Shown here: positions 1-53,640 of the stretch, in pieces
Layout of the letters: each line of letters starts with the position of its first letter
Numbering within the stretch: the first letter of the stretch is position 1
Assembly: GCA_963746875.1 (NCBI GenBank)
Contig: CAVVDA010000002.1
Location: 378,610 to 442,609 of the forward strand
Source: Thermoanaerobaculia bacterium
GTDB taxonomy: Bacteria; Acidobacteriota; Thermoanaerobaculia; UBA5066
Length of the DNA stretch: 64,000 bases
Direction: 5' to 3'
The notes under the pieces: model-generated
The model's input: only the letters and a program-made list of their open reading frames with translations
What the model was told of the DNA's origin: nothing
Databases searched by the model: none
Position numbers and translations under genes: made by a program

Positions 1-2294
1 AAGAGCGTCCTCGACGCGAACGCGAACCCGACGGACGAGGAGATCAAGCGGAAGCTCGATCCGCATCTGTGCCGGTGCACCGGCTACGTCAAGATCGTGG
101 ACGCGTTCCATGCCGCCGCCCGCCTGCGCCGGGGCGAGCCGCTCTCGCCGCCGGACGTCTCGGGCCGAGTCGGGACCAGCCTCGACCGCTACGAGGCCGA
201 GGAGCTGACGCTCGGCGACGCGGCCCTACGTCGCCGACCTCGTCTTCCCCGGCATGCTCCACGGCGCCGTCACGCTCTCGCCGCACGCGCGGGCCCGCGT
301 GAAGAGGATCGACACGTCGAGGGCGGCCGGCCATCCCGGCGTGATGGCGATCGTCACGGCGCGCGACGTGCCCGGCAAGCGCTTCTTCGGCCTGATCGTC
401 GACGACTGGCCGGGCTTCGTGGCCGAGGGCGAGGAGACGCACTACGTCGGCGACGTTCTCGCCGCCGTCGCCGCCGTCGACGCGCGCACCGCCCGCGCCG
501 CGGCCGCGCTCGTGGACGTGGAGTACGAAGTCCTCCCGCCCGTGACCGACCCCGAGGAGGCGCTGCGTCCCGGGCGCCCCGCGCGTCGGAGCGGGAGGGC
601 AATCTCCTCTCGCGCTCGGTCGTCAAGCGCGGCGACGCCGAGGCCGCGCTCGCGGCGTCCGCGCACGTCGTCGAGGGCACGTGGCAGACGCAGCGCATCG
701 AGCACCTGTACCTCGAGCCCGAGGCGTGTCTCGCCGCGCCGGGCGACGCCGCGGGGCAGAACCCGAAGGCCCGCGTGACTCTCTACACGCAGGGGCAGGG
801 CATCTTCGACGACCGGCGGCAGGTCGCCGCCTTTCTCGGCCTGTCCGCAGGACGAGGTGCACGTCGTCCTCGTCCCGAACGGCGGCGCCTTCGGCGGCAA
901 GGAGGACATGTCGATCCAGGCGCAGACGGCGCTCCTGGCCCGCGTCACGGGACGGCCCGTGCGCCTCGTCCTCTCGCGCGAGGAGTCCATGCGCCTCCAC
1001 CCGAAACGGCATCCCATCCGGATGCACTACCGCGTCGGGTGCGACGCCGAGGGCCGGCTGACCGGCGGTCCGGGCCCGGATGATCGGCGACTCGGGGGCC
1101 TACGCGTCCGTCGGCATGAAGGTGCTCGAGCGCGCGGCCGGACACGCGGCCGGGCCGTACAGGTGCGCGAACGTGGACGTCGAGGCGCTGGCCGTCTACA
1201 CGAACAACCCGCCCTGCGGCGCGATGCGCGGCTTCGGCGCGAACCAGGCCCACTTCGCGATGGAGGGCGCGCTCGACCTGCTGGCCGAGAAGGCCGGCCT
1301 CGACGGCTGGGAGATCAGGTGGCGAAACGCGCTCGAGGCGGGCGACGACTGGTCGTGCGGGCAGAAGCTCACGGCCTCCGTCGGCCTCAAGAAGACGCTC
1401 CTCGCCGTCAAGGACGTCTGGGAGAAGAACCGCGGGCGCGCGGGCATCGCCTGCGGCATCAAGAACTGCGGCATCGGAAACGGGCTGAAGGAGTGGGGAC
1501 GCGCGCGGCTCGTCGTGGAGGGCGACGGCACGCGTCACGCTCTACAACGGCTACACCGAGATGGGCCAGGGCCTCCTCACGGTCCTGATCCAGTGCGCGT
1601 GCGAGGTGACGGGCCTTCCGGCGTCCGTCTTCCGGGCGCGCGTCGACACGCGCTTCCCGATGGAGGTGGGCCAGACGACGGGCTCGCGGGCGACGTATCT
1701 CGGCGGACGCGCCGTCGTCGATGCGGCGCGGAAGCTGAAAGCCGACCTCGATTCCGGCAAGACGCTCGCGGAGCCTCGCCGGCACCGTCTACGTGGGCGA
1801 AGTCCTCGTGGACGACACGACGAAGCTCGGCCACGAGCCGCCTCCCGGCAAGCCGATGAAGCTCCACTCCGGCCTTCAGCTTCGCGACGCAGGTCGTCGT
1901 CCTGGACGAGAACGGCCGCGTGTCGAAGGTCGTGGCCGCCCACGACGTGGGGCGCGCCATCAACCCGAAGCTCTGCGAGGGGCAGATCGAAGGCTCCGTC
2001 CACATGGGCCTCGGCTACGCGCTCACGGAGGAGATGGTCTGCAAGGACGGCATGCCGACGTCGTTCCGCATCCGCGACTACGGCGTCCTGCAGGGCCAGG
2101 ACATGCCCGAGGTCGAGGTGATCCTCGTCGAGGACCCGCAGCCCGACGGCCCGTTCGGCGCGAAGGGCGTCGGGGAGATCGGCCTCGTGCCGACCGCGCC
2201 CGCCGTGGCCGCCGCCCTGTACGCGTTCGACGGCATCCGCCGGTTCACGCTGCCCATGCGCGATTCCGCCGCGGCCCGGGCGTTGAAACGGTGA
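1..2294 (+). CDS. XdhD/MOP-like molybdenum hydroxylase (2Fe-2S domain fused to molybdopterin-binding domain); 5'-truncated at window edge; at least 5 frame changes
   Basis: CRCTGY 2Fe-2S motif at start; MoCo-domain blocks (GKRFFGLIVDDWPGFVAEGE, MRGFGANQAHFAMEG, AKGVGEIGLVPTAPAVAAALYAFDG) spread over frames 97/254/857/1080/1561/1920. Confidence 0.75.
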
Positions 2295-2298
2295 GGGT

Positions 2299-3556
2299 GT
2301 GAGCCGCCCGCTCCAGAAGGTGACGGGCCTCCGGTGCGTCCTGTGCGGGGCCGTCTACGCGCACGGCGAGGAGGAGTACACCTGCCCGCGGTGCGGGATC
2401 GAGGGAATCCTCGACGTCGAATACGACCACGACCTCATCGCGCGGACGCTTCGGCCCGTCGGTCCTCGAGGCCGACCGCGAGCTGTCGCTCTGGCGCTAC
2501 CGGGCCCTCCTGCCCCTTCCCGACGACGTCGTCCCGCCGCGCCTGCAGGTGGGCTTCACGCCCGTCGTCGAGGCGCCGGCGCTCGCGAAGGAGCTCGGCC
2601 TCGGCGCGTTCTTCGTGAAGGACGACGGCCGCAACCCCACCGCCTCGTTCAAGGACCGCGCGAGCTCGGTGGGCGTCACGCGCGCGCGGTGGCTCGGGCC
2701 GGAAGGAGATCACGTGCTCGTCGACCGGCAACGCGGCTTCGTCGCTCGCCGGCTTCGCGGCCGAGGCGGGGATGAAGGCGTTCATCTTCGTGCCGGTTTC
2801 CGCGCCGGAGGCGAAGGTCGCCCAGCTTCTCGTGTACGGGGCGAAGGTGTTCCTCGTCGAAGGTGCCGTACGAGGACGCGTTCCGGACGTGCCAGTCCTC
2901 GGTCGAAAGCCTTCGGCTGGTACAACCGCAACTGCGCGATCAACCCGTATCTCGTCGAGGGGAAGAAGACCTGCGGCCTGGAGATCGCCGAGCAGATGCG
3001 CGGCCGGATGCCCGACGTCGTGACCGTCGCTCTCGGCGACGGCTGCACGACGGCGGGGATCTGGAAGGGGCTCGTCGAGATGAAGAGGCACGCCGTCATC
3101 GACCGCCTGCCGCGCCTCCTGGCGGTCCAGGCCGAAGGAGCCGCGCCGCTCGCGAAGACCTTCGCGCGCGGCGACGAGCGCATCGAGCCGGTCGAGGCGT
3201 CGACGCTCGCCGACTCCATCAACGTGGGCGCGCCGCGAAACGGCATCAAGGCTCTCCGGGCCGTCCGCGCCTCGGGCGGCGCGATCGTGACCGCGCGCGA
3301 CGAGGCGATCCTCGCGTGGATCCCGCGCCTCGCCCGCGCGACCGGCGTCTTCGCGGAGCCCACGGGCGTCGCCGCGCTCGCCGGCCTCGAGGTCGCGATC
3401 GAGAGGGGCCTCGTCAGGCGCGGGGAGCGCGTCCTCCACGTGGCGACCGGCAACGGCCTGAAAGATACTCGCGGCGCGATGCGCTCCGTCGGACCCCCGA
3501 GACGGATCCCGCCCTCTCTCGACGCCGTCCGTGCCGCACTGGAGCAAAGCGAATGA
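2299..3556 (+). CDS. threonine synthase-like PLP enzyme with N-terminal CxxC...CxxC zinc ribbon; frame changes at about 2700, 2870 and 2925
   Basis: CVLCGAVY...CPRCG; FKDRASSVGV PLP-lysine motif; TCSSTGNASSSLAGFAAEAGMKAFIFVP recovered by shifting +1 at the ctcGGGccgg homopolymer. Confidence 0.7.
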
Positions 3557-4917
3557 TTCATGGCCCGACCTATTCCGAAATGCGCGACCCCTCGAGCCTT
3601 CCCGCCGAAGCTCGCGGCGTCGCGCCGGCGTCGCCCGGCGCGAGGCGCCGCTCGATCCCGTCAACCTCTTCAACATCACGTGGCACGACGAGGACGGCCG
3701 CGTGCGGGCGCTCCGCCTGCCCGAGGCTCTCACCGGCGTTCCTTCGCCCATCGTGCTCCTCTACGCGAAGGACTTTCCCGACCGGCGCGCACAAGGTCGG
3801 GGCCACGTACTCCGTCCTCATGGAGCACCAGCTCGCCGGCGACGTCACGCCCGGCTCGTCGACGCTCGTCTGGCCCTCCACCGGCAACTACGGCATCGGC
3901 GGGCTCGTGGGTCGGCCCGCGCATGGGCTACGAGTCGGTCGTCATCCTGCCGGAGGAGATGAGCGCCGAGCGCTTCGAGAAGATCGCGGCGTACGGCGCC
4001 CGGGCCATCAAGACGCCCGGCTGCGAGAGCAACGTCAAGGAGATCTACGACGAGTGCAAGCGCCTCGCGGCGAACCCGCGCGTGAGGATCATGAACCAGT
4101 TCGCCGAGATGGCGAACTACCGCTGGCACTACCACGTCACCGGCGCCGCGGCCGCGGAGGCCGTCGAGACGCTCGGGGCCGGCCGGCCGGCCGCCTTCGT
4201 CTCGGCCATGGGCTCGGCGGGCACGATCGCGGCCGGCGACGCCCTCAAGGCGCGCTTCGGGACGCGCATCGTCGGTCTCGAGCCGGTCCAGTGCCCGACG
4301 CTCTCGTGCAACGGCTACGGCGGGCACGCCATCGAGGGCATCGGCGACAAGCACGTCACGTGGATCCACCACGTGACGAACCTGGACGCCATGATGTGCA
4401 TCGACGACGAGGAGTGCCTGCTGGGACTCCAGCTCGTGAGCCGAGCCCGTCGGGCCGCGACTTCCTCGCTTCGGGCGGCGGGCTCGGGCGAAACGGCGCA
4501 CCGCCTCTCGACGCTGCTCGGCATCAGCGGGGTCTGCAACATCCTCGGGGCGATCAAGACCGCGCGGTGGCTGGGCCTCGGAAAGGACGACGCCGTCGTC
4601 ACCGTGGCGACGGACGGCCTCGACCGCTACCCGTCGGTCCTCAGCGGCTCGCGGCGACGCACGGGCCCGCTCACGCGCGAGCGGGCCGAGGCGCGTCTCG
4701 CGTCGGTCTTCCACGGGCAGAAGCTCGACTGGATCGCCGAAGGGACCCGCGAGAACCGCGAGCGCTGGCACAACCTGAAGTACTTCACGTGGGTCGAGCA
4801 GCAGGGCAAGACCGTGGAGGAGCTCGACGCGCAGCGCTCCGAAACGCTGGTGGAGCGACCAGGCGGCGCTCGCCGGAGGACGTGGACCGCCGGCTCCGCG
4901 AGGCGCGTGGCTGGTGA
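3553..4917 (+). CDS. fold-type-II PLP-dependent enzyme (TrpB/CysK-like; possible YgeX-type role); several frame changes
   Basis: FPTGAHKVGATYSVL PLP-lysine block; NYGIGG; GSAGTIAAGDALKARFGTRIVGLEP; start ATG overlaps thrC-like stop (ATGA). Confidence 0.6.
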   Translation: MIHGPTYSEMRDPSSLPAEARGVAPASPGARRRSIPSTSSTSRGTTRTAACGRSACPRLSPAFLRPSCSSTRRTFPTGAHKVGATYSVLMEHQLAGDVTPGSSTLVWPSTGNYGIGGLVGRPAHGLRVGRHPAGGDERRALREDRGVRRPGHQDARLREQRQGDLRRVQAPRGEPAREDHEPVRRDGELPLALPRHRRRGRGGRRDARGRPAGRLRLGHGLGGHDRGRRRPQGALRDAHRRSRAGPVPDALVQRLRRARHRGHRRQARHVDPPRDEPGRHDVHRRRGVPAGTPAREPSPSGRDFLASGGGLGRNGAPPLDAARHQRGLQHPRGDQDRAVAGPRKGRRRRHRGDGRPRPLPVGPQRLAATHGPAHARAGRGASRVGLPRAEARLDRRRDPREPRALAQPEVLHVGRAAGQDRGGARRAALRNAGGATRRRSPEDVDRRLREARGW

Positions 4918-6146
4918 ACGCGGCCGGCGAGCACGGATCGGGCGCGGGCGGCCTCGCCATCGTCGGCGGGACCGTCGTGGCGCTCGACGCCGCCCGCCGT
5001 CGAGCGCCGTGACGTGCTCCTCGGGGCCGAGCCGCGCCGCACGCTCGACGCGTCGGGCTGCCTCGTCATGCCCGGGCTCGTCATCGCGCACACGCATCTC
5101 TACGCGGCGCTCGCGCGCGGGATGGCCGCCCCGGCGGAACCGCACGCGCTCTTTCCGGGAGATCCTCGAGCGCGTCTGGTGGCGGCTCGACGCGGCTCTC
5201 GACGAGAGCTCGCTCGAGGGCCTCGGCGGAAGAGGCTCTCCTGGACGCGGCGCTCTCGGGAGCGACGGCCGTCCTCGACCACCACGAGTCCCCGTCCTTC
5301 ATCGACGGCTCCCTCGACGTCCTCGCGCGGGCGGCGCAGGCGGTCGGCGTGCGGGTCGCGCTCGCCTACGGGGCGACGGACCGGCACGGGCCGGAAGGGG
5401 CGGCGGAGGGCCTCGCCGAGTGCGAGCGCGCGATCCGCGAAGGCCTGCCCGCGATGGTGGGCCTGCACGCCGGCTTCACGGTCTCGGACGAGACGCTTCG
5501 CGGCGGCCGCGGACCTGGCGCGGCGAAACGGGGCCTGGCTGCACGTGCACGCGGCCGAGGACCGCAGCGACGCGGACTCTTTCGAGCGCCTCGACAGGGC
5601 CGGGGCTCTCGGGCCGAAGACGATCCTGGCCCACGGCGTTCACCTCTCGCCGGGAGAGCGCGCGCGCGTCCAGGACGCCGGCGCCTGGATCGTTCACAAC
5701 CCGCGCAGCAACCTCCAGAACGCCGTCGGGATACGCCGACGTCGAAGACCTTCGGCCCGCGCGTCGCCCTCGGCACGGACGGGATGGACGGCGATCTCTT
5801 CACGGAAGCGCGCGTCGCGCATCTGCGCGCCCGGGAGGCGTACGGGCCGGTGGGCGGAATCGACGCGACCGCTCTTCTCGCCCGGAGCCAGCGTCTCGCC
5901 GACGCGGTCCTCGGGCCGCGCCCGGAGGACTGGATCGTCCTCGACTACGACCCGCCCACGCCGCTGACGGCGGCGAACCTCGCGGGACACGTTCTCTTCG
6001 GCCTCGGCGACGCGCCACGTGCGCGACGTCGTCGTGAACGGCGAGGTCGATCGTCGAGGGACGGCGGGCCGATGCGCGTGGACGCGGCCCGCGTCCACGC
6101 CCGCGCGCGCGAGGAGGCGGCCCGGCTGTGGGGGCGGATGGCGTGA
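4914..6146 (+). CDS. ssnA: SsnA-type amidohydrolase (chlorohydrolase/aminohydrolase family); frame-shifted
   Basis: MPGLVIAHTHLY metal-binding HxH; FREILERVWWRLDAALDESSL matches SsnA; C-terminal LGTDGMDGDLF. Confidence 0.75.
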
Positions 6147-8177
6147 GCGCGCTCCGCCCGCTCCCGCTTTCCGTCCTCGTGCGCCGCGCGGCGGAGGAGC
6201 TTCCCACGGGATCGGTCTACGACCTGCCGGCGCGCCACGTGTTCCGGGGTTTCCCGGGCCTCGACCTCTCGGTGAGGTTCCACGGCCATCGCTGCGCCGA
6301 CGCCCATCGGGCCGGCGGCCGGCCCGCACACGCAGCTCGCGCAGAACATCGCGCTCTCGTTCCTGGCCGGAGGGCGCATCCTCGAGCTCAAGACCGTTCA
6401 GGTGAACGACCGGCTCGCGATCCCGCGCCCGTGCATCGACATGCGGACGGTGGGCTTCAACGTCGAGTGGTCGCAGGAGCTCCTCGTCGAGGAGTCCCTC
6501 CGCGAGTACGCGAAGGCGCGCCTCCTCGTCGCGATCCTGGCCGAGCTGTGCGGCATTCCCGGCGCGGAGCGCGACGTCGTCCTCGACGTCTCCGTCGGCT
6601 ACAGCCTGGACGGCATCCGGTCGCGCAAGATCGCCGGGTTCTTCGAAGGGGTCCGCGACGCGAGCGCGCTCCTCGACCGGGAGCGCGTGGCGCTGCGACC
6701 GCGAGCTGCCCTCCTCCCTGCGGCGCCTCGCCGACGTCCCTGCGAGGCGCGCCTCTCCGACTCGGTCACGCTCTCCACGTTCCACGGCTGTCCGGCCGGC
6801 GAGATCGCCGCCATCAGCCGGCACCTCCTCTCGGAGCTCGGCCTCCACACGATCGTCAAGCTGAACCCGACGCTCCTCGGCTACGAGGAGGTGGAGGAGA
6901 TCCTGCACGGCCGCCTCGGGTACACGCACATCGCCCTCCGCCGGCGAGGCGTTCGAGCGCGACCTGCAATGGAACGACGCCCTCTCGATCGCCCGCGAGC
7001 TGTCCGGCGAGGCCGCCCGGCTCGGTCTCGACTTCGGCGTGAAGCTCACGAACACGCTCGTCGTCGTGAACCCCGCCGACTTCATGCCCGGCGACGAGGC
7101 GTACCTCTCCGGCGAGCCGCTCCACGTCCTCGCGCTGAGGCTCGGACTGAAACTGCGCGAGGAGCTCGGCGCCGGCTTCCCGGTCTCCTTCTCCGCCGGG
7201 ATCGACTCGGCGAACGTCGCCGAGCGCGGTCGCGTGCGGCTTCGTGCCGGTGACGAGCTGCACGGACCTCCTGCGCCCGGGCGGCTACCAGCGCCTGCAC
7301 CGGCAGGCCGAGGCCCTCGCGGCGGCGATGGACGACGCGGGCGCCGCGACGCTGCCCGACTTCATCCGGAAGCGCGCGGGGATCGCCGGGCGCCGACCTC
7401 GCCGACGCCTCGCTCGCGAATCACCGCCGCGCGGCGGAGGCAGCCGCTCGGCGACGAGCGCTACGCGGCCGCGCCGCACGGGAACGCCGCCGCGGAAGAT
7501 CGGGTCGCACCTGCACCTCCTCGACTGCATCAACTGCGACAAGTGCATCCCCGTCTGCCCGAACGACGCGAACTTCGCGTACGAGACGCCGCCCCGGACG
7601 ATCGCCTACCGCGATCTCGTCGTCCGGGACGGGCGCCTCGTGCCGGCCGCGGAGAGGACACTGGCGCTGGGCGGCGAGAAGTCCTCGCCGCACCAGCTCG
7701 CGAACTGGGCCGACGCCTGCAACGACTGCGGCAACTGCGACGTCTTCTGCCCCGAGGACGGCGGCCCGTACATCGAGAAGCCCCGCCTCTTCTCGTCCCT
7801 CTCCTCCTTCCTTGCCGACGCGCCGCGCCCGGGCTTCTTCGTCCGGCGCGAGGACGACGGCTCGCTCGCCGCCCGCGGGCGGTGGGGGGGCCGCGACCTG
7901 GAGCTTCTCGTCAGCGCCGGACGGCTCGGCGGTTTTCCGGGACGGCGTCGCCGAGCTGCTGTTCGCGTCCGCCGAGGCCGCGGCTCCGGAGGAGGCGCGC
8001 CTCCTCGCGCCGCCGCCGCCCGAGGGCCACGTCGTGCCGGTGGGGCACTACCACTCGCTCCGCGCGGTCCTGACCGGGCTCTTCGCGCCGGGCGCCGTCT
8101 CCTGGCTGACCGCCATGTTTCCGGAGGTGTCCGTGTCGCCGAAGATCCCTTCGCAACTCTCTGGAGAGCCGACGTGA
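6128..8177 (+). CDS. short YgfK-like oxidoreductase: DHOD/DPD-like TIM barrel plus C-terminal 2x[4Fe-4S]; lacks the GltD-like FAD/NAD(P) domain of E. coli YgfK; frame-shifted
   Basis: PIGPAAGPHTQLAQNI, KLNPTLLGY, FGVKLTNTL, LLRPGGY match YgfK N-terminal part; CINCDKCIPVCP and CNDCGNCDVFCP ferredoxin motifs. Confidence 0.75.
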
Positions 8178-9305
8178 AGACAACCGTGACCGCCGATCCC
8201 GACGCTCTCTCCAGCCTCCTGGGCCGAAGCCTGCTTCTGACGGACGACTACACGACGGCGGAGCTCTCGCAGCTCCTCGCCGTCGCCGAGCGCTTCTCCG
8301 CGTTGGACCGCGTCGGGAAGAAGGCGCCGCTCCTGCCCCACGAGCTCGCCTACGCGCTCTTCTTCGACAACTCCACGCGGACCAAGTCCGCGTGGGCGGG
8401 CGCCGCGGCCCGGCTCGGCATGCACCCCGTCATCGTGGACGGCTCGTCCACGCAGGTCTCGCACGGCGAGACCGCGGCCGGAGACCGGCGCCATGCTCGG
8501 AATGAACGCGCACGCGCTCGGCGTGCAGGCACGACCTGATCCTCGGCGAGGGAAACGCGTTCATGCGCGACGTGAAGAAGGGGATCGACGCCTACCTCGC
8601 GGCGACGGGCGACCCGAGGAGCGTGCCCGTCGTGAACCTCCAGTGCGACATCGACCATCCGACGCAGACGCTCGCCGACCTGTGCTGGCTGCGCGAGAGG
8701 TTTCCGGAGGGCCTCGCCGGCAAGCGCATCGCCGTGTCGTGGGCCTACTCGCCGAGCTACGCCAAGCCGCTCTCGGTCCCGCAGGGGCTCATCATGCTGC
8801 TGACGCGCTTCGGCGCCCACGTGACGCTGGCGCATCCGGAGGGCTATCGCCTCATGGAGCCGTGCCTCGCGTCCGCGGCCTCGCATGCGGCCTCTTCGGC
8901 GGCTCTTTCCGAACGGTCTCCTCGATGGACGAAGCGTTCGAAGGGCGCCGACGCGGTCTATCCGAAGAGCTGGGGACCGTACGACCTCATGCTCGCCCGC
9001 GTCGAGGCGAACCGCGCGCGCGACGCGAAAGCGAATGGCGGAGATCGAGAAGGAAGCCCTCGCGCTCGAACGCGCGGCACCGCGACTGGATCTGCGACGA
9101 GCGGCGGATGAAGACGACGCGCGGCGGCGACGCCCTCTACATGCACTGCCTTCCCGCCGACATCGGGGCGGAGGTCTCGCCCGGCGTCATGGCCACTCAC
9201 GCCGGGAACGTGGCGCGGGAAGCGAACTGGAAGGTCTACGTCGTGATGGCGCTGCTCGCGACGGCCAAGGTCCCCGGCCTCGCCCGGCGGCTGGAGGCGT
9301 TGTGA
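8173..9305 (+). CDS. ygeW: YgeW-type carbamoyltransferase; frame-shifted
   Basis: FFDNSTRTK; VNLQCDIDHPTQTLADL; WAYSPSYAKPLSVPQG; ALYMHCLPADI - near-identical blocks to E. coli YgeW. Confidence 0.8.
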
Positions 9306-9310
9306 GTGAA

Positions 9311-10867
9311 ATGGAGACGACGACGATGAACGAGCTCGACGCGAAGGTCGCGGAGCTCGCGGCCCGCTACCGGCCGCTCGCGGCGAGATTCTCAAGGAGG
9401 TCATCCGCATCCCGGCCGATTACGTCGACCGGCCGAAGGATGCCGGCGGCGACCCGAGCTGCGGCCTCTCGAACCACGAGAAGCCGAGGCTCGAGTACCT
9501 GAGGAAGAAGATCGTCGAGATCGGCGCCGTCCGCCGGCCGGAGGACGTCGGCTACGACGGCTACGGGAATCTCGTCTGGACGGTCGAGGATCCGGCCGAC
9601 GGCATTTCCGCGAAGGACAAGCGCGTCGTCTACTTCGACGGCCACACCGACACGGTGAAGGCCATCCGCCCGGCGTGGCGCGAGAAGACGGGCGGCGTCG
9701 ACGCCTACGACGGGCTCTTCGACCCCGCGCGCCTCGAGGCGCGACTTCCTGAAGACGCGAGCTGGGATACCTGCCGCCCGAGTCCGAGTGGGACAACCTC
9801 GTCTTCGGGCGCGGCTCGGCCGATCAGCTCTCGGGCGTCGTGGCGCAGGTCGTCGCGACGAAGATCCTGCTCGAGCTCGCCCCGCTGGGCGCGCTCCGGG
9901 GCGCGATCGTCCGCTCCTACGCGACCGTCGCCGAGGAGGACAACGACGGCGGCGGCCCGCAGTTCGTGATGCGGAAGGTCCTGCCCGGCGCCGGGCCGGA
10001 GCTCGTGCCGGACGCCGTCATCCTCACGGAAGGGCACGGGCGACTCCGCGAAGGGGGCGCTCGGGATCTACCGCGGCCAGCGCGGCCGCATGCAGATCGA
10101 GGTGACCGTGACGGGGAAGTCCTGCCACGGCTCGATGCCGTGGGAAGGAAAGAACCCGCTGGAATGGGGCGCGCCCATCCTCGCCGAAGCGGCGAAGCGA
10201 TACGACGCGCGGGACGGCTTCCTCGACCACGCGTTCCTCGGGCACGGCACGCGCACGGCCTCGTGGGCCCGCCTCGACACGCCGAGCGACTGCGCGGTCC
10301 CCGAGCGCTTCGTCTTCCGCTTCGACCGGCGCCTCACGATCGGGGAGACGCCGGAGAAGGCCGTCGCCGACGTCGAGGGCCTCGCGGCCGTGGCCGCCGC
10401 GCGGGCCGCGGGGCTGACCGTCGACGTCACCGTGCCGACGTACGACGAGCCGACGTGGACCGGCTTCGTCCTCGGCAACCCGCAGGTCTACATGGGCTGG
10501 CTCACGCCGGAGGAGCATCCGGCGATCCAGGCCGCCGTCGCGGCGTATCGCGGCGTCGTCACGCCGCACGTCCCGGCCGGAGGCCAGCGCGGCGCGCTCC
10601 GCAGGGAGCCGCGCGTGGACCGGTGGATCTTCTCGACGGACGGCGTCGGCTTTCCGGTGCCGGGTCGACGACACGTCGATCGCCGTTCCCGAGCGCAAGC
10701 GCTGGGTGACGTCGGGCGCCGTGAAGCACCCGGCCATGCTCGGCATCGGGCCCGGCATCGAGCAGAACACGCACAAGATCGGGGAGTGCGTCGACCTGCG
10801 CGAAGTGGTCAACGCGGTCGCGCTCCTGGCCCGCTTTCCGAGCGCGTTCGTGGCGACAGCGGGGTAG
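9311..10867 (+). CDS. ygeY: YgeY-type M20 family peptidase; frame-shifted
   Basis: YRGQRGRMQIEVTVTGKSCHGSMP; DCAVPERFVFRFDRRLTIGE; DRWIFSTDGVG match YgeY. Confidence 0.75.
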
Positions 10868-10872
10868 GCTGC

Positions 10873-13210
<2,338 letters not shown>

Positions 13211-13216
<6 letters not shown>

Positions 13217-15170
13217 AGCGCAGCGCCTCCATCGGAGAGAGGCGGCTCGCCTTCCACGCGGGGTAGAGCGCGAAGAGGAAGCCGAAGCCGGCCGCGAGGC
13301 GCGAAGGCCCAGAGGAAGCTCGCGGGCTGCATGTAGAGCGGGATCTCGAGGAACGACGTGATGACCTTCGAGAAGGCGACGCCGGCCGCGAAGCCCGCGA
13401 GGGCGCCGAGGCCCGTCAGGAGGAGCGCCTCGGTCATGAACTCCTTGAAGACCTCGCGGCCCGAGGCGCCGATCGCCATCTTGACGCCCACCTCGCGCAC
13501 GCGCTCCTTGAGCGTCGCCATCTGGATGTTCACGTTGACCATCCCGCCGCCGATGAGCGACAGGATGCCCGAGAGCATGAAGATCATGTTGTAGACGTCG
13601 CCCTGGCTCCGGCGCTTGCGGATGCGCGCGGCGATGTCGTCGATGCGGAAGTCCTCCTGCTGGCGGTGGTTCGCCTTGCAGGAGCGCCGTCGAGGCCCTC
13701 GCGTGAACGTCTCGCATGACGTTGAGGTCGCGGATCCGGAAGACGACGCGGTCGACGCGCTGCCAGCGGTCGCCCTGCATGCGCGTCGGCGACGAGCGTG
13801 GCCGGGACGGCGACGATCCGGTTCCGCCAGGCGAACTGGTTGCCCTGGTTGTCGCGCCAGCGGAAGATCTTCTCGGCGAAGGTCGCCGACGACGACGACG
13901 GGGATGTCGCCGAGCGCGGATCGTCTGGCCGACGGCGTCGCCCGTCGGGAAGAACGTGGACGTCGGCCTCGGCGCCGAGGAGCGCGACCGGCCTGTCCGT
14001 TCTCGAAGTCGTCCGCGGAGAAGCCGCGGCCCTTGTCGACCGTGTAGCCGTTCAGGGCGAGGTAGTCGCCGCCGATCCCGGTGATCTGGCGGTCCTGGTC
14101 GGCGTAGGGCGAGCGGACGCGCGCCCGCGCGAACTTCTGCTGCGCTGACGCCGGCGACGGCCTTCGCGTCGAGCGCGCTCGCCCTCCGCGGCGTCCTCGT
14201 TGCGGAGGCCGAGGTTCGCCGTCTGGAGCGCCGTCGGCTGGCCGTCGCGGATCGCCTCGCGACGGCTGGACGTTCAGGCGGTCCATCCCGCCGAGCTTCA
14301 CCCAGCGCTCGTCCGAGCGGCGCCGCTGGCTGTCGGAGATCGAGAAGCCCGCCGAGGACCGACGCGACGCCGAGGATGACGCCGAGCGTCTGGAGCGTCG
14401 ACCGGCCGAGGTTCTCGCGGATCTCGACCCAGGCGCCCGAAGAGGCGCTCGCGGAAGGCGCCGCGTGAACATCAGGCCGCCCGCTTCTCCGGACGTCGGA
14501 GACGATCAGGCCGTCGCGCAGCTCGACCCGCCGCTCGGCGAGGGACGCGATGTGCGGGTCGTGCGTGACGAGCATGACGGAGTTCCCCTGCCGGTGCAGC
14601 TCCTGGAAGAGGGCGAGGACCTCCTCGCCCGTCTTCGAGTCGAGCGCGCCCGTCGGCTCGTCGGCGAGGAGGAGCGCGGGCGTGTTCGCGAGGGCGCGCG
14701 CGATCGCGACGCGCTGCCGCTGGCCGCCCGAGAGCTGCGCCGGGCAGCACGTTCGCCTTCTCGGGGATCCCGACCCGCTCGAGCAGCTCGAGCGCGCGGC
14801 GCCGGCGCTCCTTGCGCGCCGAGGCCCGCGTAGAGGAGCGGCAGCTCGACGTTCCGGAGCGATCGACGCCTTCGGCAGGAGGTTGTAGCTCTGGAAGACG
14901 AAGCCGATCTTCTCGTTGCGGATGCGCGCGAGCGCGGCGCCGGACAGGCCCTCCACGTTCGCGCCGTCGAGCGCGTACGAGCCCGCCGTCGGCGAGTCGA
15001 GGCAGCCGATGATCGCCATGAGCGTCGACTTGCCGGAGCCCGACGGGCCGACGAGGGCCACGAACTCGCCGCGCCGCGACGGTGAGGTCGATGCCGCGGA
15101 GCGCGTGCACGGCCATGCCGTTCGCGCCGAAGACCTTCGTCAGGCCGCGTGTCTCGATGATCGGGCGCAT
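13211..15170 (-). CDS. macB: MacB-type ABC transporter (ATPase fused to FtsX permease); frame-shifted
   Basis: MRPIIETRGLTKVFG; GPSGSGKSTL Walker A; LSGGQRQRVAIARAL; LLADEPTGALD; permease RVREVGVKMAIGASGREVFKEF. Confidence 0.8.
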
Positions 15171-15173
15171 CGT

Positions 15174-16419
15174 TCAGTTGTCGTCGTCCTTCTCGACCTT
15201 CTTCTTCGTCGGGTCCTCGAGCGCGACCTGCTCGCCGCCCTTGAGGCCCGACAGGATCTCGACGCGCTCGAGCGTCGCGATGCCGGCGTTCACCGGGCAC
15301 GACGTCGTAGTAGTCCTTCCAGTGGTCCGAGAGCCAGATGTACTTGCCGCGCCCGTCGAGGCCTTCCTTCGCGGCGGCGATCTGCTTCGGCTTCGAGGTC
15401 GCTCTTCAGGCGGTAGACGACGGTCTTGCCCTTCGCGCGCGCTGGAGCGCCTCGAGCGGAATCGAGACGGCCTTTTCCCGCTTCTCGCCGAGGATCTCGA
15501 CGTTCGCGCTCATGCCCGTGCGGTAGGAGTCGCCGAGCTCGTCGAGCGCGATCTCGACGGGGAAGACCTTGATCTTCTCGAGGAGCTTCGCGGCGGGCGC
15601 CACGAAGCGCACCTTGCCCGTGAAGATCTTCTGCGGATACGCGTCGAGCGTGATCCGCACGGGCTGGCCGACCTTCACCTTCGCGATGTCGACCTCGTTC
15701 AGGTTCACCTTGATGAGGAGCGTCTTGAGGTCGGCCACCGTGAAGAGGACCGTGCCCGCGTTGAAGGACGACACGCCCGACGTCACGGTCTCGCCCAGCT
15801 CGACGCCCTTCGTGATGACGACGCCGGACATCGGGGCCGTGACGCGCGCGCGCTGGGTCACGGCGTCGCCGGAGATCGGGATGCCGTGCCCCTCGACGAT
15901 CTCGTAGCGCTGCCGCGCGGCCTTCACGTTCTCGGCCGCGAGATCGCGCTTCGTGACGTAGTCCTTCAGCGTCTCGCCGCCGATGAGGCCGTCCTTGAAG
16001 AGCCGCTCCTGGGAGCGGAGCTGGCGCTCGGCGTCCTTCAGGCCGACCTCGGCCTGCGTGACGCCGGCCCTCACGTCGGAGAGGGACTGGGCCTGGGTGA
16101 CGTCGGGCTCGACCTCGGCGAGGATGTCGCCGGACTTCACGACGGCGCCGTCGCGGACCTTCAGGGCGACGACCCGGCCCGACACGACGGACTTGACGTC
16201 GACCTTCGTCTCGGGATCGACGACGCCGACCTCGCGGACGCTCACCTGGAGGTCCTCGGCCTGCACTTTCCCGATCCGGAAGGGCGGCTGGTCGGGCCCC
16301 TTGGCCTTGTCCTTGCCGCGCGAGGCGAAGAGGACACCCCCGCCCGCGAGCAGGATGACGCCGGCGGACGCCAGGATCCATTTGAGTCTTCTTGGACATG
16401 CGGGACCTCTCTCCCGCAT
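15174..16419 (-). CDS. macA: efflux membrane fusion protein (MacA/HlyD family)
   Basis: N-terminal TM; coiled-coil region; GQPVRITLDAYPQKIFTGKVRFVAPAA; C-terminal frame change (VVYRLK...). Confidence 0.75.
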
Positions 16420-27920: not shown

Positions 27921-29373
27921 CGGCCCATGCCGCGACGCGCTCCTCGAGGTACGGGAAGAACGGGTTCCACGACAGGCGCATCCACTGGTCGAACGGGACC
28001 GTGAGGATCGAGCGCTCGCCTCGCGGGCCGACGCGCCCGAGCCGGAGGCCGAACGTGGGCGGCGGGTCGGGCAGCCGGCCGTAAAGATCGTCGCTCTCGG
28101 GGAACGGGATCGCGACGTGCGAGAGCGAGAAGACCTCCGGCGGCCACGCGAGGCCGAGGGGGCGGGCCTCCAGCTTGACGGGCCCGGGCCCCGCGGACGA
28201 CACGGCGACGTCCCGCGTGTCGCGCCGCGCATTCGAGATCGCCGTGAGGCGGTAGCGGAGGTCCGTGCGCGCCTTGAGGTCGAGGAGGAGGTCCTGCTCG
28301 GGCCGCTCGAGGAAGGGCGCGAGGTCGCTGACGCGGTTGATGTCGAAGAGGACGAGCTCGCTCCCGTTCGCGGGGAGCCTGTCGTAGAGCCGATGGACGA
28401 TCGCGGAGGTGGAGACCGTCGCGTCGACGAGCGACTGAAAGGTGAGGACGGGCGCGAGGTCCTTCAGCCGGCCGTTCGCCGCGAGGCGCTCGGTCTGGGC
28501 GTTCAGCGCCTGCGTGAGCTTCCAGGTCTGGAGGCCGGCGTTCGCCGGGAACGAGCTGTACTTGTACGGGTTGTACTCGGGCAGGACATCGAGCCACGCG
28601 TTCTTTTCGAAGAACGGGATGCGGTGCAGGAGGCTCACGACGCGCGCGAAGCCCGCGAAGGGGGTCACGCCGATCATGGGCGACATCAGGACGATCCGGT
28701 CCGGCCGCGGGAAGGCCCGAGCCTTCGAGGACGTCCTGCGCGTACTTGACCGCGAGCGCGCCGCCGTTCGAGTAGCCGACGAGGACGAACGGGCTTGCCC
28801 TCTCCCGCCTTCGAGCGGACGTGGCGGGCGGCGAGCCGCACGACGCTCATCCAGTCCTGCCACTCCACGGGGACGAGGCCCGCGGGCGCCGTGCCGTGGC
28901 CCGGCATCCGCGGCGCGAGAGCGTAATAGCCGAGGCGCTGCAGAGTCTCGGCGATCGGCCTGACGCTGTACGGCGCGTCCGTGAGGCCGTGAAGGAGGAG
29001 CGCGCCGCCCGCGATCGTCTCCGGCAGGAGCTCGAACGTCCGGTTGCCGTCGGCCGAGCCGAGACGCGTCGGGTCGAGCGGGCCGCCCGCGAGGTAGCGG
29101 TTGCCTGCCGTGCGGTCCTCGGCGGAGACGGTATCCAGCACGCGCGTCTTGAGCGCCCGGAAGACCGCGTCCTCGCGCTCGAGGTAGTCGGCGAGCGTCG
29201 CCGTGTCGGGCAGCTCACCGGCCTTGACGTCGCCGAGGTCGGCGCGGTGCCACGGCTTGAGGTCCGGTAGGGAGCGTGCCTGGAAGCCGCGGCCGAGGAG
29301 GATCGTGAGAAAGACGGCGGCGAGAGATTTCCACGAGGTTGAGCGAGGCCGCGCGGCTCTTCTTCATGGACGT
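27898..29373 (-). CDS. secreted alpha/beta-hydrolase (lipase/esterase-like); frame-shifted
   Basis: LLHGLTDAPYS; nucleophile elbow GYSNGG recovered in a shifted frame. Confidence 0.6.
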
Positions 29374-29389
29374 GCGACAGCCTATCGCG

Positions 29390-29429
29390 CTCTTACTCAT
29401 TCGAAGAAATCTTCTTCCCGTCTCTCTGG
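29390..29429. repeat. dispersed repeat copy in the divergent intergenic region hydrolase<->typA
   Basis: ctcttactcattcgaagaaatcttcttcccgtctctctgg; near-identical to 58319-58359. Confidence 0.55.
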
Positions 29430-29489
29430 TATCCTGTCCAACCCCGCGGAGCGGCCGCCTCCCGGCCCCGCGTCCCGAAAGCAGGCTCC

Positions 29490-31328
29490 ATGTCCGGACT
29501 CCGCAACATCGCGATCATCGCGCACGTCGACCATGGCAAGACCACGCTCGTGGACTGCCTCCTGAAGCAGTCCGGCACGTTCCGCGCGAACGAGGCGATG
29601 TCCGGCACCGAGCGGATCATGGACAGCAACGACCTCGAGCGAGAGCGCGGCATCACGATCCTCGCGAAGAACACGTCCATCCACTACCACGGCACGAAGA
29701 TCAACATCGTCGACACGCCGGGCCACAGCGACTTCGGGGGCGAGGTCGAGCGCGTCCTCAAGATGGTGGACGCGGTGCTGCTCGTCGTGGACGCGGCCGA
29801 GGGCACGATGCCCCAGACGCGCTTCGTCCTGCGCAAGGCGTTCGAGCTGGGGCTGAAGCCCATCGTCGTCGTGAACAAGGTCGACCGGCCGGACGCGCGG
29901 CCGCATCAGGTCATCGACGAGGTGTTCGACCTCATGGTCGACCTCGGCGCCACGGACGAGCAGCTCGACTTCCCGATCGTGTACACGTCCGCCAAGCACG
30001 GCTTCGCGCGCCGCGAGGTGGATCACACGGAGACGGACGTGCGGCCGCTCCTGGACGCGATTCTCGTGGAGGTGCCGGAGCCCGGCGGCGACCCCGCCGC
30101 CCCGCTGCAGATCCTCGTGGCCTCGCTGGACTACGACAACTACCTCGGCCGGCTCCTCATCGGCCGCATCGTGAACGGGACCGTCGCGCCGGGCCAGCAG
30201 GTCTCGGTCTGCAAGCTCGACGGCACCGTGACGAAGGCGAAGATCGTGAAGCTCATGGCGTTCGAGGGGCTGAAGCGCGTCGAGGTCGAGGAGGCGCGCG
30301 CCGGCGACCTCGTCGTGATCTCCGGCATCGAGGAGGTCACGATCGGCGAGACGCTGGCCGATCTGGAGAATCCCGTCGCCCTCGCGCCGATCGCCGTCGA
30401 CGAGCCGACGGTCTCCATGACGTTCCGCGTGAACGACTCGCCGTTCGCCGGCCGCGAGGGCAAGTACGTCACGAGCCGCAATCTCGGAGAGCGCCTCCAG
30501 AAGGAGCTGCGCACGAACGTCGCGATGCGCGTGGAGGAGACCGACAGTCCCGACGCCTTCCGCGTCTCGGGGCGCGGCGAGCTGCATCTCGCGATCACGG
30601 TCGAGATGATGCGCCGCGAGGGCTTCGAGTTCGCGCTCTCCCGTCCCCAGGTCATCCTGAAGGAGATCGACGGGCAGACCTGCGAGCCGATCGAGGAGCT
30701 CGTCATCGACGTTCCGGAAGTCGCGATGGGGACGGTCATCGAGAAGCTCGGCCAGCGCAAGGCCGAGATGACGAACATGACGAACCACGGCTCGGGACGC
30801 GTGAAGATCGAGTTCAAGATCCCGACCCGCGGCCTCTTCGGGTACCGCAACGAGTTCCTGACGGACACGAAGGGCGAGGGCCTGCTGTACCACGTCTTCC
30901 ACGGCTACGAGCCGTTCCGCGGCGAGGTGACGGGCCGCGGGCGGGGCGCGCTCGTGTGCAAGGAGGCGGGAGAGACGACGGCGCATTCGCTCGAGCGGCT
31001 CGAGGAGCGCTCGACGCTGTTCCTGCCGCCCGGCATCGAGGTCTACGGCGGGATGATCTGCGGCGAGAGCGCGCGGGAGAACGACCTCGTCGTGAACCCC
31101 TGCGTCAAGAAGCACCTCACGAACATGCGCTCGTCCGGCTCGGACTTCGCGATCCGCCTCACGCCGCCGCGCCCGATGCCCCTCGAGCTCGCCATCGAGT
31201 GGATCGAGGACGACGAGCTCGTCGAGGTGACGCCGAAGTCCGTGAGGCTGCGCAAGCGCATCCTCGACCACTCCCTGCGGCGTGTCTCCGAGAAGAGGAC
31301 CGCGGTGGTGGAAGAGGAAGAGGCGTGA
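29490..31328 (+). CDS. typA: translational GTPase TypA/BipA
   Basis: intact 612-aa ORF; [23 protein letters not shown]. Confidence 0.95.
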
Positions 31329-48127: not shown

Positions 48128-48733
48128 CCGTTTCCCCGCCGGCCGCGCGAGGAGAGCAAGGCGGCGGCCCTTGTCGGAGTCGTCCACGAGCTGCGCGAGG
48201 CGGCGCTGGCGTGTCTCGGGCTTCTTGGCGCTCATGACCCAGAACGTCGCGACCTTTCGGTACCCGGGCGGCTGCACCTGGAAGAACTCCCACGCCAGCG
48301 GTCTCGCGCGGAACGCCTTCGCCGAGGCGGGATCCAGTTTCGGCGCGCTTCTCTGCTCGAAGGAGTAGACGCCGGTGCGCTTCGCCTCGCGCGCTTCGAA
48401 CGCCCGGAGCCCCGCGGGCTCCATGCGGCCCGCCTTCCGGAGGCGTGCGACGTGGCGGATGTTGATGAGGCTCCAGATGCTACGGGGCCGGCGGGGCGAA
48501 AAGCGGATCGTCCAGCGGCCGTCGCCGAGCGAGCGGCGGACTCCGTCGATCCAGCCAAAGCACAGCGCCTCGTCGAGCGCCTGCTGGTAGGTGAGGCTCG
48601 TGCGGCAGGGCGCCTTCCTGAGGAAGCCGACGAAGAGCTCGGCCTCCTTCGCGTGGTGCTTCCCGAGCCAGCGCCGGAACGCGGCGGCGTCGTCGAAGAA
48701 GAGGGACTTCGGGGCGCTGGGCGACTTCGGCAT
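48122..48733 (-). CDS. YdeI/OmpD-associated family protein
   Basis: FFDDAAAFRRWLGKHHAKEAELFVGF ... ALCFGWIDG. Confidence 0.6.
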   Translation of the reverse strand: MPKSPSAPKSLFFDDAAAFRRWLGKHHAKEAELFVGFLRKAPCRTSLTYQQALDEALCFGWIDGVRRSLGDGRWTIRFSPRRPRSIWSLINIRHVARLRKAGRMEPAGLRAFEAREAKRTGVYSFEQRSAPKLDPASAKAFRARPLAWEFFQVQPPGYRKVATFWVMSAKKPETRQRRLAQLVDDSDKGRRLALLARPAGKRS

Positions 48734-48740
48734 GCGCGGA

Positions 48741-49694
48741 TCACGCCCCGTCCAGCGGGCTCCGGACGCCGCGGCCTCCGGTGTTGAGGACGTGTGTGTA
48801 GATCATGGTCGTCGCGACGTCGCGGTGGCCGAGGAGCTCCTGGATGGTGCGGATGTCGTAGCCGCTCTCGAGGAGGTGCGTCGCGAAGCTGTGGCGCAGG
48901 GAGTGGCAGGTCGCGAGCTTCGCGATCCCGGCGTCCGCGACGGCCCTCTTCACGGCGCGCTGGACGGCGGTCTCGTGGAGGTGGTGGCGGCGGATCTCGC
49001 CGCCGCGCGGGTCGGCGCTCTCGCGGTCCGCGGGGAAGACGAACTGCCACGGCCAGCTCTTCGCGGCGCCGGGATACTTGATGCGAATGGCGTCGGGGAG
49101 GTGGACGTCGCCGCAACCCCGCGCGAGCTCGGCGTCGTGCCGGGCGCGGACTGTCCTCAGGTGCGCCGCGAGGTCGGGCTTGAGCGCGGCGGGAACCATC
49201 GTGACGCGGTCCTTCTGGCCCTTGCCGTCCCGGACGAGGATCTCGTTGCGGGAGAGGTCGAGGTCCTTGACGCGCAGGCGCAGCGCCTCCATCAGCCTGA
49301 GGCCCGAGCCGTAGAGGAGGGTCGCGACGAGGCGCGGCTCGCCGCCGAGGCGGGCGAGGACGCGGCGGACTTCGTCGCGGGTGAGGACGACGGGGAGCCG
49401 CGACGGCCGCCGGGCCCGGACGAGCGCGGGCATCTCGGGAAAGGGCTTCTCGAGGACGTGCCGGTAGAGGAAGAGGAGCGCGGAGAGGGCCTGGTTCTGG
49501 GTCGAGGCCGCGACTCGGCCGTCCGTCGCGAGCGAGGACAGGAAGGCGTTGATCTCGGGCTCGCCCATCTCGTCGGGATGCCGTTTGCCGTGGAAGACGA
49601 CGAACCGCCGGATCCACCCGGCGTAGGCCTCTTCGGTCCGAAGGCTGTAGTGGCGCGCGCGGAGCGCGGCACGGACGCGGTCGAGGAGCTTCAT
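48741..49694 (-). CDS. intI: integron integrase IntI (tyrosine recombinase)
   Basis: intact 317 aa; block-by-block match to IntI1 including the IntI-specific insertion ([24 protein letters not shown]) and [39 protein letters not shown]. Confidence 0.9.
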
Positions 49695-49818
49695 GGGCTG
49701 CCGTGAAGAACTTAGGTCCGTCGCGAGCGTAAGTCAACCGTAAGTTTGATCCGAAAATGAGCCGCCATTCATTTTTTCCATGACGCGCCGCGAAAGGCGT
49801 GCTAGGTTCCCGGGCTGC

Positions 49819-53584: not shown

Positions 53585-53640
53585 CGGGCTTAGAGCTACC
53601 ACGGCTTATCTTACAACATGCTGCGCTATCCTCCCTTGCG

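Follow-up and report, generated by a model that had tools for sequence, protein, structure and literature searches.

A conserved seven-gene operon of Thermoanaerobaculia as a putative variant of the reductive urate pathway

Only in 2025 was the anaerobic degradation of urate worked out, for Enterobacteria and Clostridia of the gut, and it is being pursued for the development of gout probiotics. In this reductive uric acid, or 2,8-dioxopurine, pathway, which was set out by Li et al. (10.1101/2025.05.19.654654) and Liu et al. (10.1101/2025.04.24.650524), the first step is the reduction of urate to 2,8-dioxopurine, either by XdhD-YgfM with NADH, as in Escherichia coli, or by the selenium-dependent and NAD(P)H-independent enzyme XdhAC (also termed DOPDH), as in C. 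sporogenes. The NADPH-dependent reductase YgfK and SsnA then yield ureidomethylhydantoin, HyuA opens the hydantoin ring, and the later steps are carried out by YgeW (with YqeA making ATP), by YgeY and lastly by YgeX, which converts diaminopropionate to pyruvate (Li et al., Liu et al.). Reductases that lack a flavin adenine dinucleotide (FAD) domain are also known, namely UacX of C. difficile, for which ferredoxin is the proposed donor, and an F420-type enzyme in Chloroflexota (Li et al., 10.1101/2025.05.19.654654). Among the questions that are open for the pathway are its physiological electron donor and the stereochemistry of its C3 intermediates, and D-stereochemistry has been proposed for pathway intermediates (Percudani, PMC12990295). 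Here we describe a cluster of seven genes at positions 1-10867 (plus strand) of a 64,000-nucleotide stretch of contig CAVVDA010000002.1, from a Thermoanaerobaculia bacterium of the Acidobacteriota (assembly GCA_963746875.1); the whole of this stretch is referred to below as the window. The explanation that we favor, with a probability of about 0.62, is that the cluster is a functional operon of a Thermoanaerobaculia-like genome for a variant form of reductive urate degradation, and that the copy of it in the window is full of spurious single-base insertions.

Gene content of the operon and the short YgfK

The seven genes of the cluster are co-directional and mostly overlapping, and the conservation of the operon was observed directly in four related loci, all of which are from metagenome-assembled genomes (MAGs) of Thermoanaerobaculia/Acidobacteriota. 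Three of these loci (L001, L002 and L012) have the identical seven-gene order, with intact genes and overlapping stop and start codons, and the fourth (L007) has the same order with its YgfK called as two open reading frames (ORFs) of 450 and 191 aa. Over 18 kb the window and L001 are collinear, at 87% identity, and the identity of the window to L007 is 87.5%. Gene identities and domain architectures were read from scans with NCBIfam and Pfam profiles, which were run on both the stitched translations of the window and the intact L001 orthologues, and the coordinates of the seven genes are given throughout in their frame-corrected form.

A first-pass annotation of the window had named five pathway homologues (a molybdenum (Mo) hydroxylase, SsnA, YgfK, YgeW and YgeY) and two pyridoxal phosphate (PLP) enzymes, which are here termed PALP1 and PALP2, and all seven were found essentially where it had placed them. 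The motifs that it quoted were also seen, these being CxxC...CxxC in PALP1, FPTGAHK in PALP2 and two copies of CxxCxxCxxxCP in YgfK. Its designation of the locus as a purine catabolic cluster of the selenium-dependent molybdenum hydroxylase type was right in kind, and the chemistry of that kind of cluster is now defined, but the gene content is different, and the E. coli ygeW-ygfM neighborhood that the cluster was said to reproduce is not there as a whole: hyuA, yqeA, yqeB, yqeC, ygfM and a true ygeX were not found in the window or the flanks of L001 and L002. By tblastn, there was likewise no homologue of ygfT, ygfS or mocA in the window, L001 or L002. What the locus shares with the clusters of E. 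coli and C. sporogenes is the Mo-hydroxylase, the N-terminal reductase domain and C-terminal 2x[4Fe-4S] module of YgfK, and homologues of SsnA, YgeW and YgeY; what sets it apart from them, besides the missing genes, is a YgfK without the ~500-aa GltD-like Fer4_20/FAD/NAD(P)H module and the presence of two PLP enzymes instead of YgeX. The operon is conserved and is a new variant of the recently described pathway.

The Mo-hydroxylase is encoded by the first gene (1..2294, +), with the N-terminal ~109 aa of the protein lying beyond the start of the window. The stitched partial protein scored 803 bits against TIGR03311 ('selenium-dependent xanthine dehydrogenase') and its L001 orthologue scored 912.9 (cut-off 830.45) over profile positions 2-845 of 848; the Pfam domains identified were Fer2_2, Ald_Xan_dh_C, MoCoBD_1 and MoCoBD_2. 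In the window the gene has about ten frameshifting indels, and once these were corrected it showed 93% amino acid identity to L001, no stops and a dN/dS of 0.16. The XdhD/MOP-like identity that had first been proposed was rejected, as the scores with TIGR03313 were only 211-227 bits versus a cut-off of 1102, and by its profile matches the protein is instead of the TIGR03311 type, with the fused XdhAC/DOPDH architecture. Consequently, the fusion of the 2Fe-2S domain in cis, which had been listed as a departure from the enterobacterial system, is canonical, because N-terminal 2Fe-2S domains belong to the TIGR03311 family model; E. coli XdhD is likewise annotated as fused, and a cis fusion is also implied by the name XdhAC. 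The clostridial XdhAC shares with the window enzyme the fused Fe-S/Mo architecture that is devoid of FAD.

The homologues of SsnA, YgeW and YgeY all fall below the cut-offs of their curated families (the scores given are those of the L001 proteins). The SsnA-like amidohydrolase (407 aa; 4914..6146, +) obtained 327 and 318 bits with PRK07203 and TIGR03314 (cut-offs 444 and 455, respectively), which were still its best matches, and its identity to E. coli SsnA across residues 8-438 is 36-37%; its corrected gene has no stops and a dN/dS of 0.20. The YgeW-like knotted carbamoyltransferase (375 aa; 8174..9305, +; Pfam OTCace_N and OTCace) obtained 363 bits with PRK07200 (cut-off 453) and 334 with TIGR03316 (cut-off 500) and has 47% identity to E. 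coli YgeW, and no YqeA partner for it was found in the window. The YgeY-like M20 hydrolase (512 aa; 9326..10867, +; Pfam M20_dimer and Peptidase_M20) obtained 195 bits with PRK13004 (cut-off 321). With 29-30% identity to E. coli YgeY, the protein is a long form, ~110 aa longer than the E. coli protein (512 versus 403 aa, with ~100 extra aligned columns), which was also found in the Acidobacteriota loci L045 and L051 (67-72% identity).

The short YgfK (677 aa; 6143..8177, +) is encoded directly downstream of SsnA, and the stop and start codons of the two genes overlap in the relatives. That this protein, at about 680 aa, has no GltD-like FAD/NAD(P)H module was the leading claim of the first-pass annotation, and it was borne out by several comparisons. 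TIGR03315 matched the short YgfK at profile positions 3-398 of 1012 only (401 bits, cut-off 835), and E. coli YgfK (1032 aa) aligned to it only at residues 5-408 (40-42% identity) and 905-979, such that residues 409-904 have no equivalent and the Pfam domains Fer4_20 (453-532) and Pyr_redox_2 (552-839) of the E. coli protein are both without a counterpart. The concern that the module might be present and merely hidden by frame changes was dispelled by the abundance of intact homologues of 665-680 aa, aligning over the full query, in Acidobacteriota, Eisenbacteria, Myxococcales and other phyla, and these sequences show the short YgfK to be an intact and widespread family.

A search of the PDB by sequence gave no match to the short YgfK. 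However, an AlphaFold model of the L001 protein (pLDDT 83.7, pTM 0.86) matched, in Foldseek, class-2 dihydroorotate dehydrogenases (DHODH; E ~4e-8, target TM 0.62-0.67) and, over ~610 columns, pig dihydropyrimidine dehydrogenase (DPD), and the predicted fold corresponds to domains IV-V of DPD and to DHODH. The predicted layout consists of a DHOD/DPD-like barrel of the flavin mononucleotide (FMN) type at ~1-400, 2x[4Fe-4S] at ~455-540 and a beta-rich C-terminal domain. Comparable enzymes are UacX of C. difficile, clostridial PydA and E. coli PreA, which also have an FMN barrel and a di-cluster ferredoxin domain without an FAD/NADPH subunit in cis. The short YgfK differs from them in that its barrel is homologous to the N-terminal domain of YgfK and is not recognized by Pfam DHO_dh (PF01180), and in the possession of the extra beta-rich C-terminal domain, of ~130 aa.

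In other genomes the short YgfK adjoins three-subunit Mo-hydroxylases (in L004 and L006) or YgeW and YgeY (in L005), or forms part of full clusters (L053, L066, L067 and L070). The possible donor genes beside it vary, being FAD/Fe-S subunits of the xanthine dehydrogenase (XDH) type in L004, L006 and L053 and a PduS-like protein in L067. In the latter locus, from an Ignavibacteriales MAG, the interval between PALP2 and YgeY (11688-15300) encodes a 544-aa protein, a PduS/RnfC-like flavo-Fe-S protein (Complex1_51K + Fer4_17 + RnfC_N) and a BMC shell protein, a trio that could represent a candidate electron donor together with a link to a microcompartment. Within the window, just one gene (53353-55761, +) has an obvious Fe-S electron-transfer product. 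Its protein is intact, at 803 aa, and combines a 4Fe-4S dicluster with CCG domains of the HdrD/GlpC-like type; the gene is 43 kb away, and nothing ties it to the cluster.

The paired PLP enzymes

PALP1 (417 aa; 2299..3556, +) is a ThrC-like fold-type-II PLP enzyme. The L001 protein passed the cut-offs of both PRK08197 (310.1, cut-off 303) and TIGR00260 (199, cut-off 167), and PALP1 matched threonine synthases in the PDB with an E value of 5e-60, although the match started only at residue ~65. With threonine synthase it has in common the fold-type-II PLP core, the SFKDR lysine motif and clear homology (E ~1e-60); it differs in having a Cys-rich N-terminal ribbon, two replaced invariant residues and the context of a urate-pathway operon. 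In the window PALP1, the ThrC-invariant Thr of 'STGNT' is an Ala and the Arg of 'NPxRxEGQKT' is a Leu. Both positions are replaced in all 37 of the cluster-linked PALP1 proteins (the window and 36 other loci), the Thr by Ala and the Arg by Leu, Thr or Met, and nearly all of these proteins have the N-terminal Cys-rich ribbon. The same two residues are invariant in four solved ThrC structures (PDB 2zsj, 2d1f, 6cgq and 1uim). In the ThrC of T. thermophilus they are T88 and R160, which we take to bind the phosphate of the substrate, as was reportedly described by Omi et al. in 2003. Because the residues at these positions are replaced, PALP1 is unlikely to be a threonine synthase despite passing the hidden Markov models for that enzyme, and it appears rather to be derived from ThrC through loss of the presumed phosphate-binding residues and gain of a zinc ribbon.

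PALP2 (451 aa; 3553..4917, +) is a more distant, CysK/CBS-like PLP enzyme. Its only Pfam match was PALP, its best NCBIfam match was cysK with 105 bits versus a cut-off of 351 (cysM gave 74 versus 394), and its best PDB match was a CysK with an E value of 3e-27. In addition to the lysine motif noted above it has conserved N- and C-terminal extensions of ~75 and ~90 aa, and the family, which is CysK-like and for which there is no curated model, retains 60-65% identity across phyla. YgeX/DpaL has the same PLP fold type (PF00291) and operon context as PALP1 and PALP2, but neither of the two matches the DpaL models, which were not reached by any protein of the window or L001 (E<=1e-5 and 1e-20). 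When E. coli YgeX was used as the tblastn query, PALP1 of the relatives was aligned at ~23% identity over 191 aa. ThrC-like or CysK-like enzymes are not mentioned as part of the pathway in either of the 2025 pathway papers or in a full-text literature search.

At least 597 PALP2 loci are present among species-representative genomes, and the neighborhoods of the 80 best were surveyed. This survey showed directly that PALP1 and PALP2 are linked with genes of the pathway across phyla: a PALP1-like gene was a neighbor of PALP2 at 38 of the 80 loci, SsnA at 34, YgeW/OTC at 28, YgeY at 23 and a true YgeX at one. For the 40 loci that had at least 8 kb on both sides of PALP2 (full-flank loci), the corresponding numbers were 22 for PALP1, 21 for SsnA, 20 for YgeW/OTC, 16 for YgeY and one for YgeX, and two or more pathway-type neighbors were present in 28 of them. 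The groups in which the pair is linked to SsnA, YgeW, YgeY and the Mo-hydroxylase are the Chloroflexota, Acidobacteriota, Gemmatimonadota, Verrucomicrobiota, Bacteroidales, Elusimicrobiota and Bacillota. Particularly full sets are those of L066 (Gemmatimonadota) and L053 (Akkermansiaceae), in which co-directional genes follow one another in the order Mo-enzyme, short YgfK, cyclic amidohydrolase, SsnA, PALP2, YgeY, OTC-like protein and PALP1; YgeY in related clusters of these two groups passes its cut-off (439 versus 321). The tandem of two fold-type-II PLP enzymes with no YgeX, to which the first-pass annotation had drawn attention, is therefore not a matter of ordinary ThrC and CysK proteins unrelated to the cluster, since the pair is kept in syntenic relatives, recurs beside pathway genes in many phyla, and has the residue replacements of PALP1.

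A different combination is found in L045 (Thermoanaerobaculia ACID-3, JASNYI010000001.1, 55-20277), which encodes a long YgfK, HyuA, YgeW, SsnA, YqeA, a true DpaL, the Mo-enzyme and YqeB/YqeC, and in which PALP2 and the long form of YgeY are present and PALP1 is absent. It is the one locus among the 80 with a true DpaL (PRK08206, 300 versus a cut-off of 276). By gene content, then, canonical and variant types of the cluster coexist in the Thermoanaerobaculia lineage. The occurrence in L045 of a true DpaL together with PALP2, and without PALP1, suggests that PALP1 and YgeX are alternatives to each other and that PALP2 is an additional member of the cluster. Separately, in the deltaproteobacterial loci L008 (8395-11416; Desulfovibrionales), L015 and L016, PALP2 is paired with a different PALP protein, of 531 aa, and not with PALP1, which suggests a second kind of partner for PALP2; the pair in L008 adjoins genes for YgeY, AA_kinase and OTCase.

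Frame disruptions in the window copy

None of the seven cluster genes has an intact ORF as sequenced, and every one of them is frame-disrupted several times, but the per-frame translations of 1-10867 nevertheless give continuous and recognizable proteins. The GC content of the window is ~72%, and in 1-10867 the signal from GC at third codon positions (GC3) is always on the plus strand, with a coding frame that shifts each 200-500 bp. The frameshifts made simple ORF lists and GC3 filtering ineffective, and the gene models in 1-11 kb were obtained by Viterbi segmentation of GC3 together with homologue-guided correction. Matching segments from tblastn were unable to locate the frameshifts, as alternative frames remain open at 72% GC. 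The reference for the correction was the intact syntenic relative L001 (ENA ERZ27262737 k141_1816849).

In the DNA alignment of the window with L001 (90.8% identity) there were 60 indels, 58 of which were not a multiple of three. The spectrum of those within 1-10867 (n=57) was strongly biased, with 49 of +1, one of +2, six of -1 and one of -6, and by comparison the control pair L002 and L001, which are both intact and equally diverged, had just five indels. When the window-specific insertions were removed, there were no internal stops in any of the seven genes (~3,600 corrected codons), and the corrected proteins had 87-96% amino acid identity to those of L001. Purifying selection was observed for each gene, with dN/dS values of 0.09-0.22 after correction that are the same as in the intact controls L002 and L007. 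The same insertions are carried by unrelated flanking genes (Sua5, MacB/FtsX, ABC and MFP). Same-strand frame switches in successive 8-kb segments of the window numbered 23, 21, 14, 6, 12, 0, 2 and 2. The TypA/BipA gene at 29343-31325 is intact amid the error-rich part of the window (1-40000), and the genes at 48-64 kb are intact. Sequencing error of the homopolymer type was ruled out as the origin of the insertions, as 15 of the 49 were beside the same base versus ~53% expected by chance.

Given the predominance of +1 indels, the absence of stops, the control-like dN/dS values and the involvement of flanking genes, the comparison with relatives indicates an insertion-biased artefact of the consensus, rather than pseudogenization, as the origin of the frame changes, and the genes are to be treated as intact in the organism. 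The first-pass annotation had not identified the frame changes as pervasive insertion errors that run through all seven genes. The uneven density of the errors may have its cause in coverage, in polishing or in the merging of assemblies. A more general lesson is that frame-broken genes on long contigs can reflect a sequencing artefact.

Proposed route and alternative explanations

In the route that we propose, which is inferred as regards its substrate, its electron donor and the roles of the two PLP enzymes, the FAD-less Mo/2Fe-2S hydroxylase would reduce urate to 2,8-dioxopurine and the short YgfK, with its FMN barrel and two [4Fe-4S] clusters, would dearomatize 2,8-dioxopurine. Because both of these reductive steps would be without a pyridine-nucleotide module, the electrons for both would probably come from ferredoxin or another low-potential carrier that is encoded elsewhere, a situation like that proposed for clostridial XdhAC and UacX. 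SsnA would then open the ring of the reduced purine, YgeW and YgeY would remove ureido groups, and PALP1 and PALP2, in the position of E. coli YgeX, would turn the resulting C3 diamino/ureido amino acid into pyruvate and ammonia. One idea for the presence of two PLP enzymes is that D- and L-stereoisomers would be handled separately (compare the D-intermediates that have been proposed). The suggestion in the first-pass annotation that the reductant and ammonia-lyase steps may be organized differently from the enterobacterial pathway is supported by the comparative evidence above. A further step, which we offer tentatively and at slightly less than even odds, would be that PALP1 and PALP2 are unrecognized catalytic members of the pathway, forming a terminal branch that is prevalent in environmental phyla (for example, with D-configured albizziin or diaminopropionate being handled by PALP1/PALP2), and that the pathway as a whole needs no pyridine nucleotides, its electrons being supplied by ferredoxin or another low-potential carrier.

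Several observations weigh against a urate pathway of this kind at the locus. The pathway is incomplete as seen there by gene content: tblastn with E. coli K-12 queries, run on the whole 64 kb of the window and on L001 and L002 with their flanks, found no HyuA, YqeA, YqeB or YqeC. Those not found thus include the selenium/molybdenum cofactor maturation genes YqeB and YqeC, which together with SelD belong to the selenium-dependent molybdenum hydroxylase system of Haft & Self (2008) (selD was outside the search). In the same sequences there was no true YgeX, the best candidate being PALP1, as a fold-family match with 23% identity. The hydantoinase and carbamate kinase that are lacking may either be encoded elsewhere or be a sign of a modified route. 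No conserved electron-donor gene adjoins the cluster, there being none in the window lineage and inconsistent ones at other loci. The SsnA, YgeW and YgeY homologues, with their scores below cut-off, could act on related but different substrates. It is also important to note that, on the survey data, PALP2 is not simply a replacement for YgeX, because it co-occurs with a true DpaL in L045 and because ~30% of the full-flank PALP2 loci are without pathway neighbors. Lastly, the proteins in their frame-corrected form were reconstructed with the guidance of a relative at 87-96% identity.

The incomplete gene set leads to the alternative that the operon is functional but acts on a different N-heterocycle or ureido compound (another purine, or a pyrimidine-like or hydantoin-like compound) and supplies a different amino acid to the PLP enzymes. 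This would fit the low scores of SsnA (327 versus 444), YgeW (363 versus 453) and YgeY (195 versus 321, and ~29% identity to the E. coli protein), the lack of HyuA and YgeX, the presence of PALP1 and PALP2, which are without known function, and the fact that some short YgfK genes adjoin three-subunit enzymes of the XDH or carbon monoxide dehydrogenase (CODH) type where the rest of the pathway is lacking. We nonetheless regard a different substrate as unlikely, in view of the Mo-enzyme orthologue passing the equivalog cut-off of TIGR03311, of the Gemmatimonadota and Akkermansiaceae clusters, which have in addition a cyclic amidohydrolase and a YgeY above its cut-off (439 versus 321) and thereby reach a full complement, and of L045, from the same class as the window, in which PALP2 is combined with the complete canonical set.

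Far less probable still are two other explanations. PALP1 and PALP2 would be mere housekeeping threonine and cysteine synthases within the operon, with the true ammonia-lyase elsewhere, if one were guided by the 'threonine synthase' cut-offs of PRK08197 and TIGR00260 that PALP1 passes, by cysteine synthases being the best matches of PALP2 and by the JGI name of the latter, cysteine synthase; such a role is very hard to reconcile with the linkage of the pair to pathway genes across the groups listed above, with the loss of the ThrC-invariant Thr and Arg in 37 of 37 PALP1 proteins, with the extra zinc ribbon of PALP1, or with a cysK score for PALP2 of 105 versus 351 and its conserved ~75- and ~90-aa extensions. 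A genuine pseudogene array, in which true mutations broke the reading frames and the organism no longer has the pathway, has on its side the repeated breakage of all seven genes and the intactness of some conserved genes elsewhere in the window (TypA at 29343-31325 and those at 48-64 kb), a pattern that could resemble selective decay. Natural gene decay is marked by deletion-biased indels of varied length, and the spectrum of 49 +1, one +2, six -1 and one -6 indels is unlike it; moreover, there are no in-frame stops in the ~3,600 corrected codons, the dN/dS values are identical to those of intact relatives, the Sua5, MacB/FtsX, ABC and MFP genes are equally affected, and the density of errors declines smoothly along the window. 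We therefore give real decay of the cluster only the slightest chance, and we return to a functional operon for reductive urate degradation as the favored explanation.

The locus and its relatives show that the pathway reaches the Acidobacteriota, Gemmatimonadota, Verrucomicrobiota, Chloroflexota and other environmental phyla, that YgfK without an NADPH module is common, and that the majority of the surveyed PALP2-linked clusters have two uncharacterized PLP enzymes at the place where YgeX would be expected. The InterPro families on which published surveys relied are presumably based on the TIGR03314 and TIGR03315 cut-offs. These lineages have probably been missed by such surveys, because their SsnA and YgfK proteins fall below those cut-offs and because any PF00291 neighbor was scored as 'YgeX' in the survey of Li et al. 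(10.1101/2025.05.19.654654). As the PALP1 family passes the NCBI PRK08197 'threonine synthase' equivalog cut-off, its systematic mis-annotation in public genomes is likely. The most valuable leads to come from the locus are the PALP1/PALP2 module and the short YgfK, which is predicted to be NADPH-independent.

Elsewhere in the window, the stretch 40500-49733 has a lower GC content (~62% versus ~70%) and contains two ORFs for IS110-family transposases (43140-44264 and 45176-46273) and one for a tyrosine recombinase (48744-49733). From these genes it is probably a mobile-element island. A ribosomal RNA operon was rejected as the cause of the 62% GC at 40.5-48.2 kb, as Rfam gave one tRNA only in the window and the IS110 transposases are located there. 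The island marks the border between the error-rich and the clean parts of the window.

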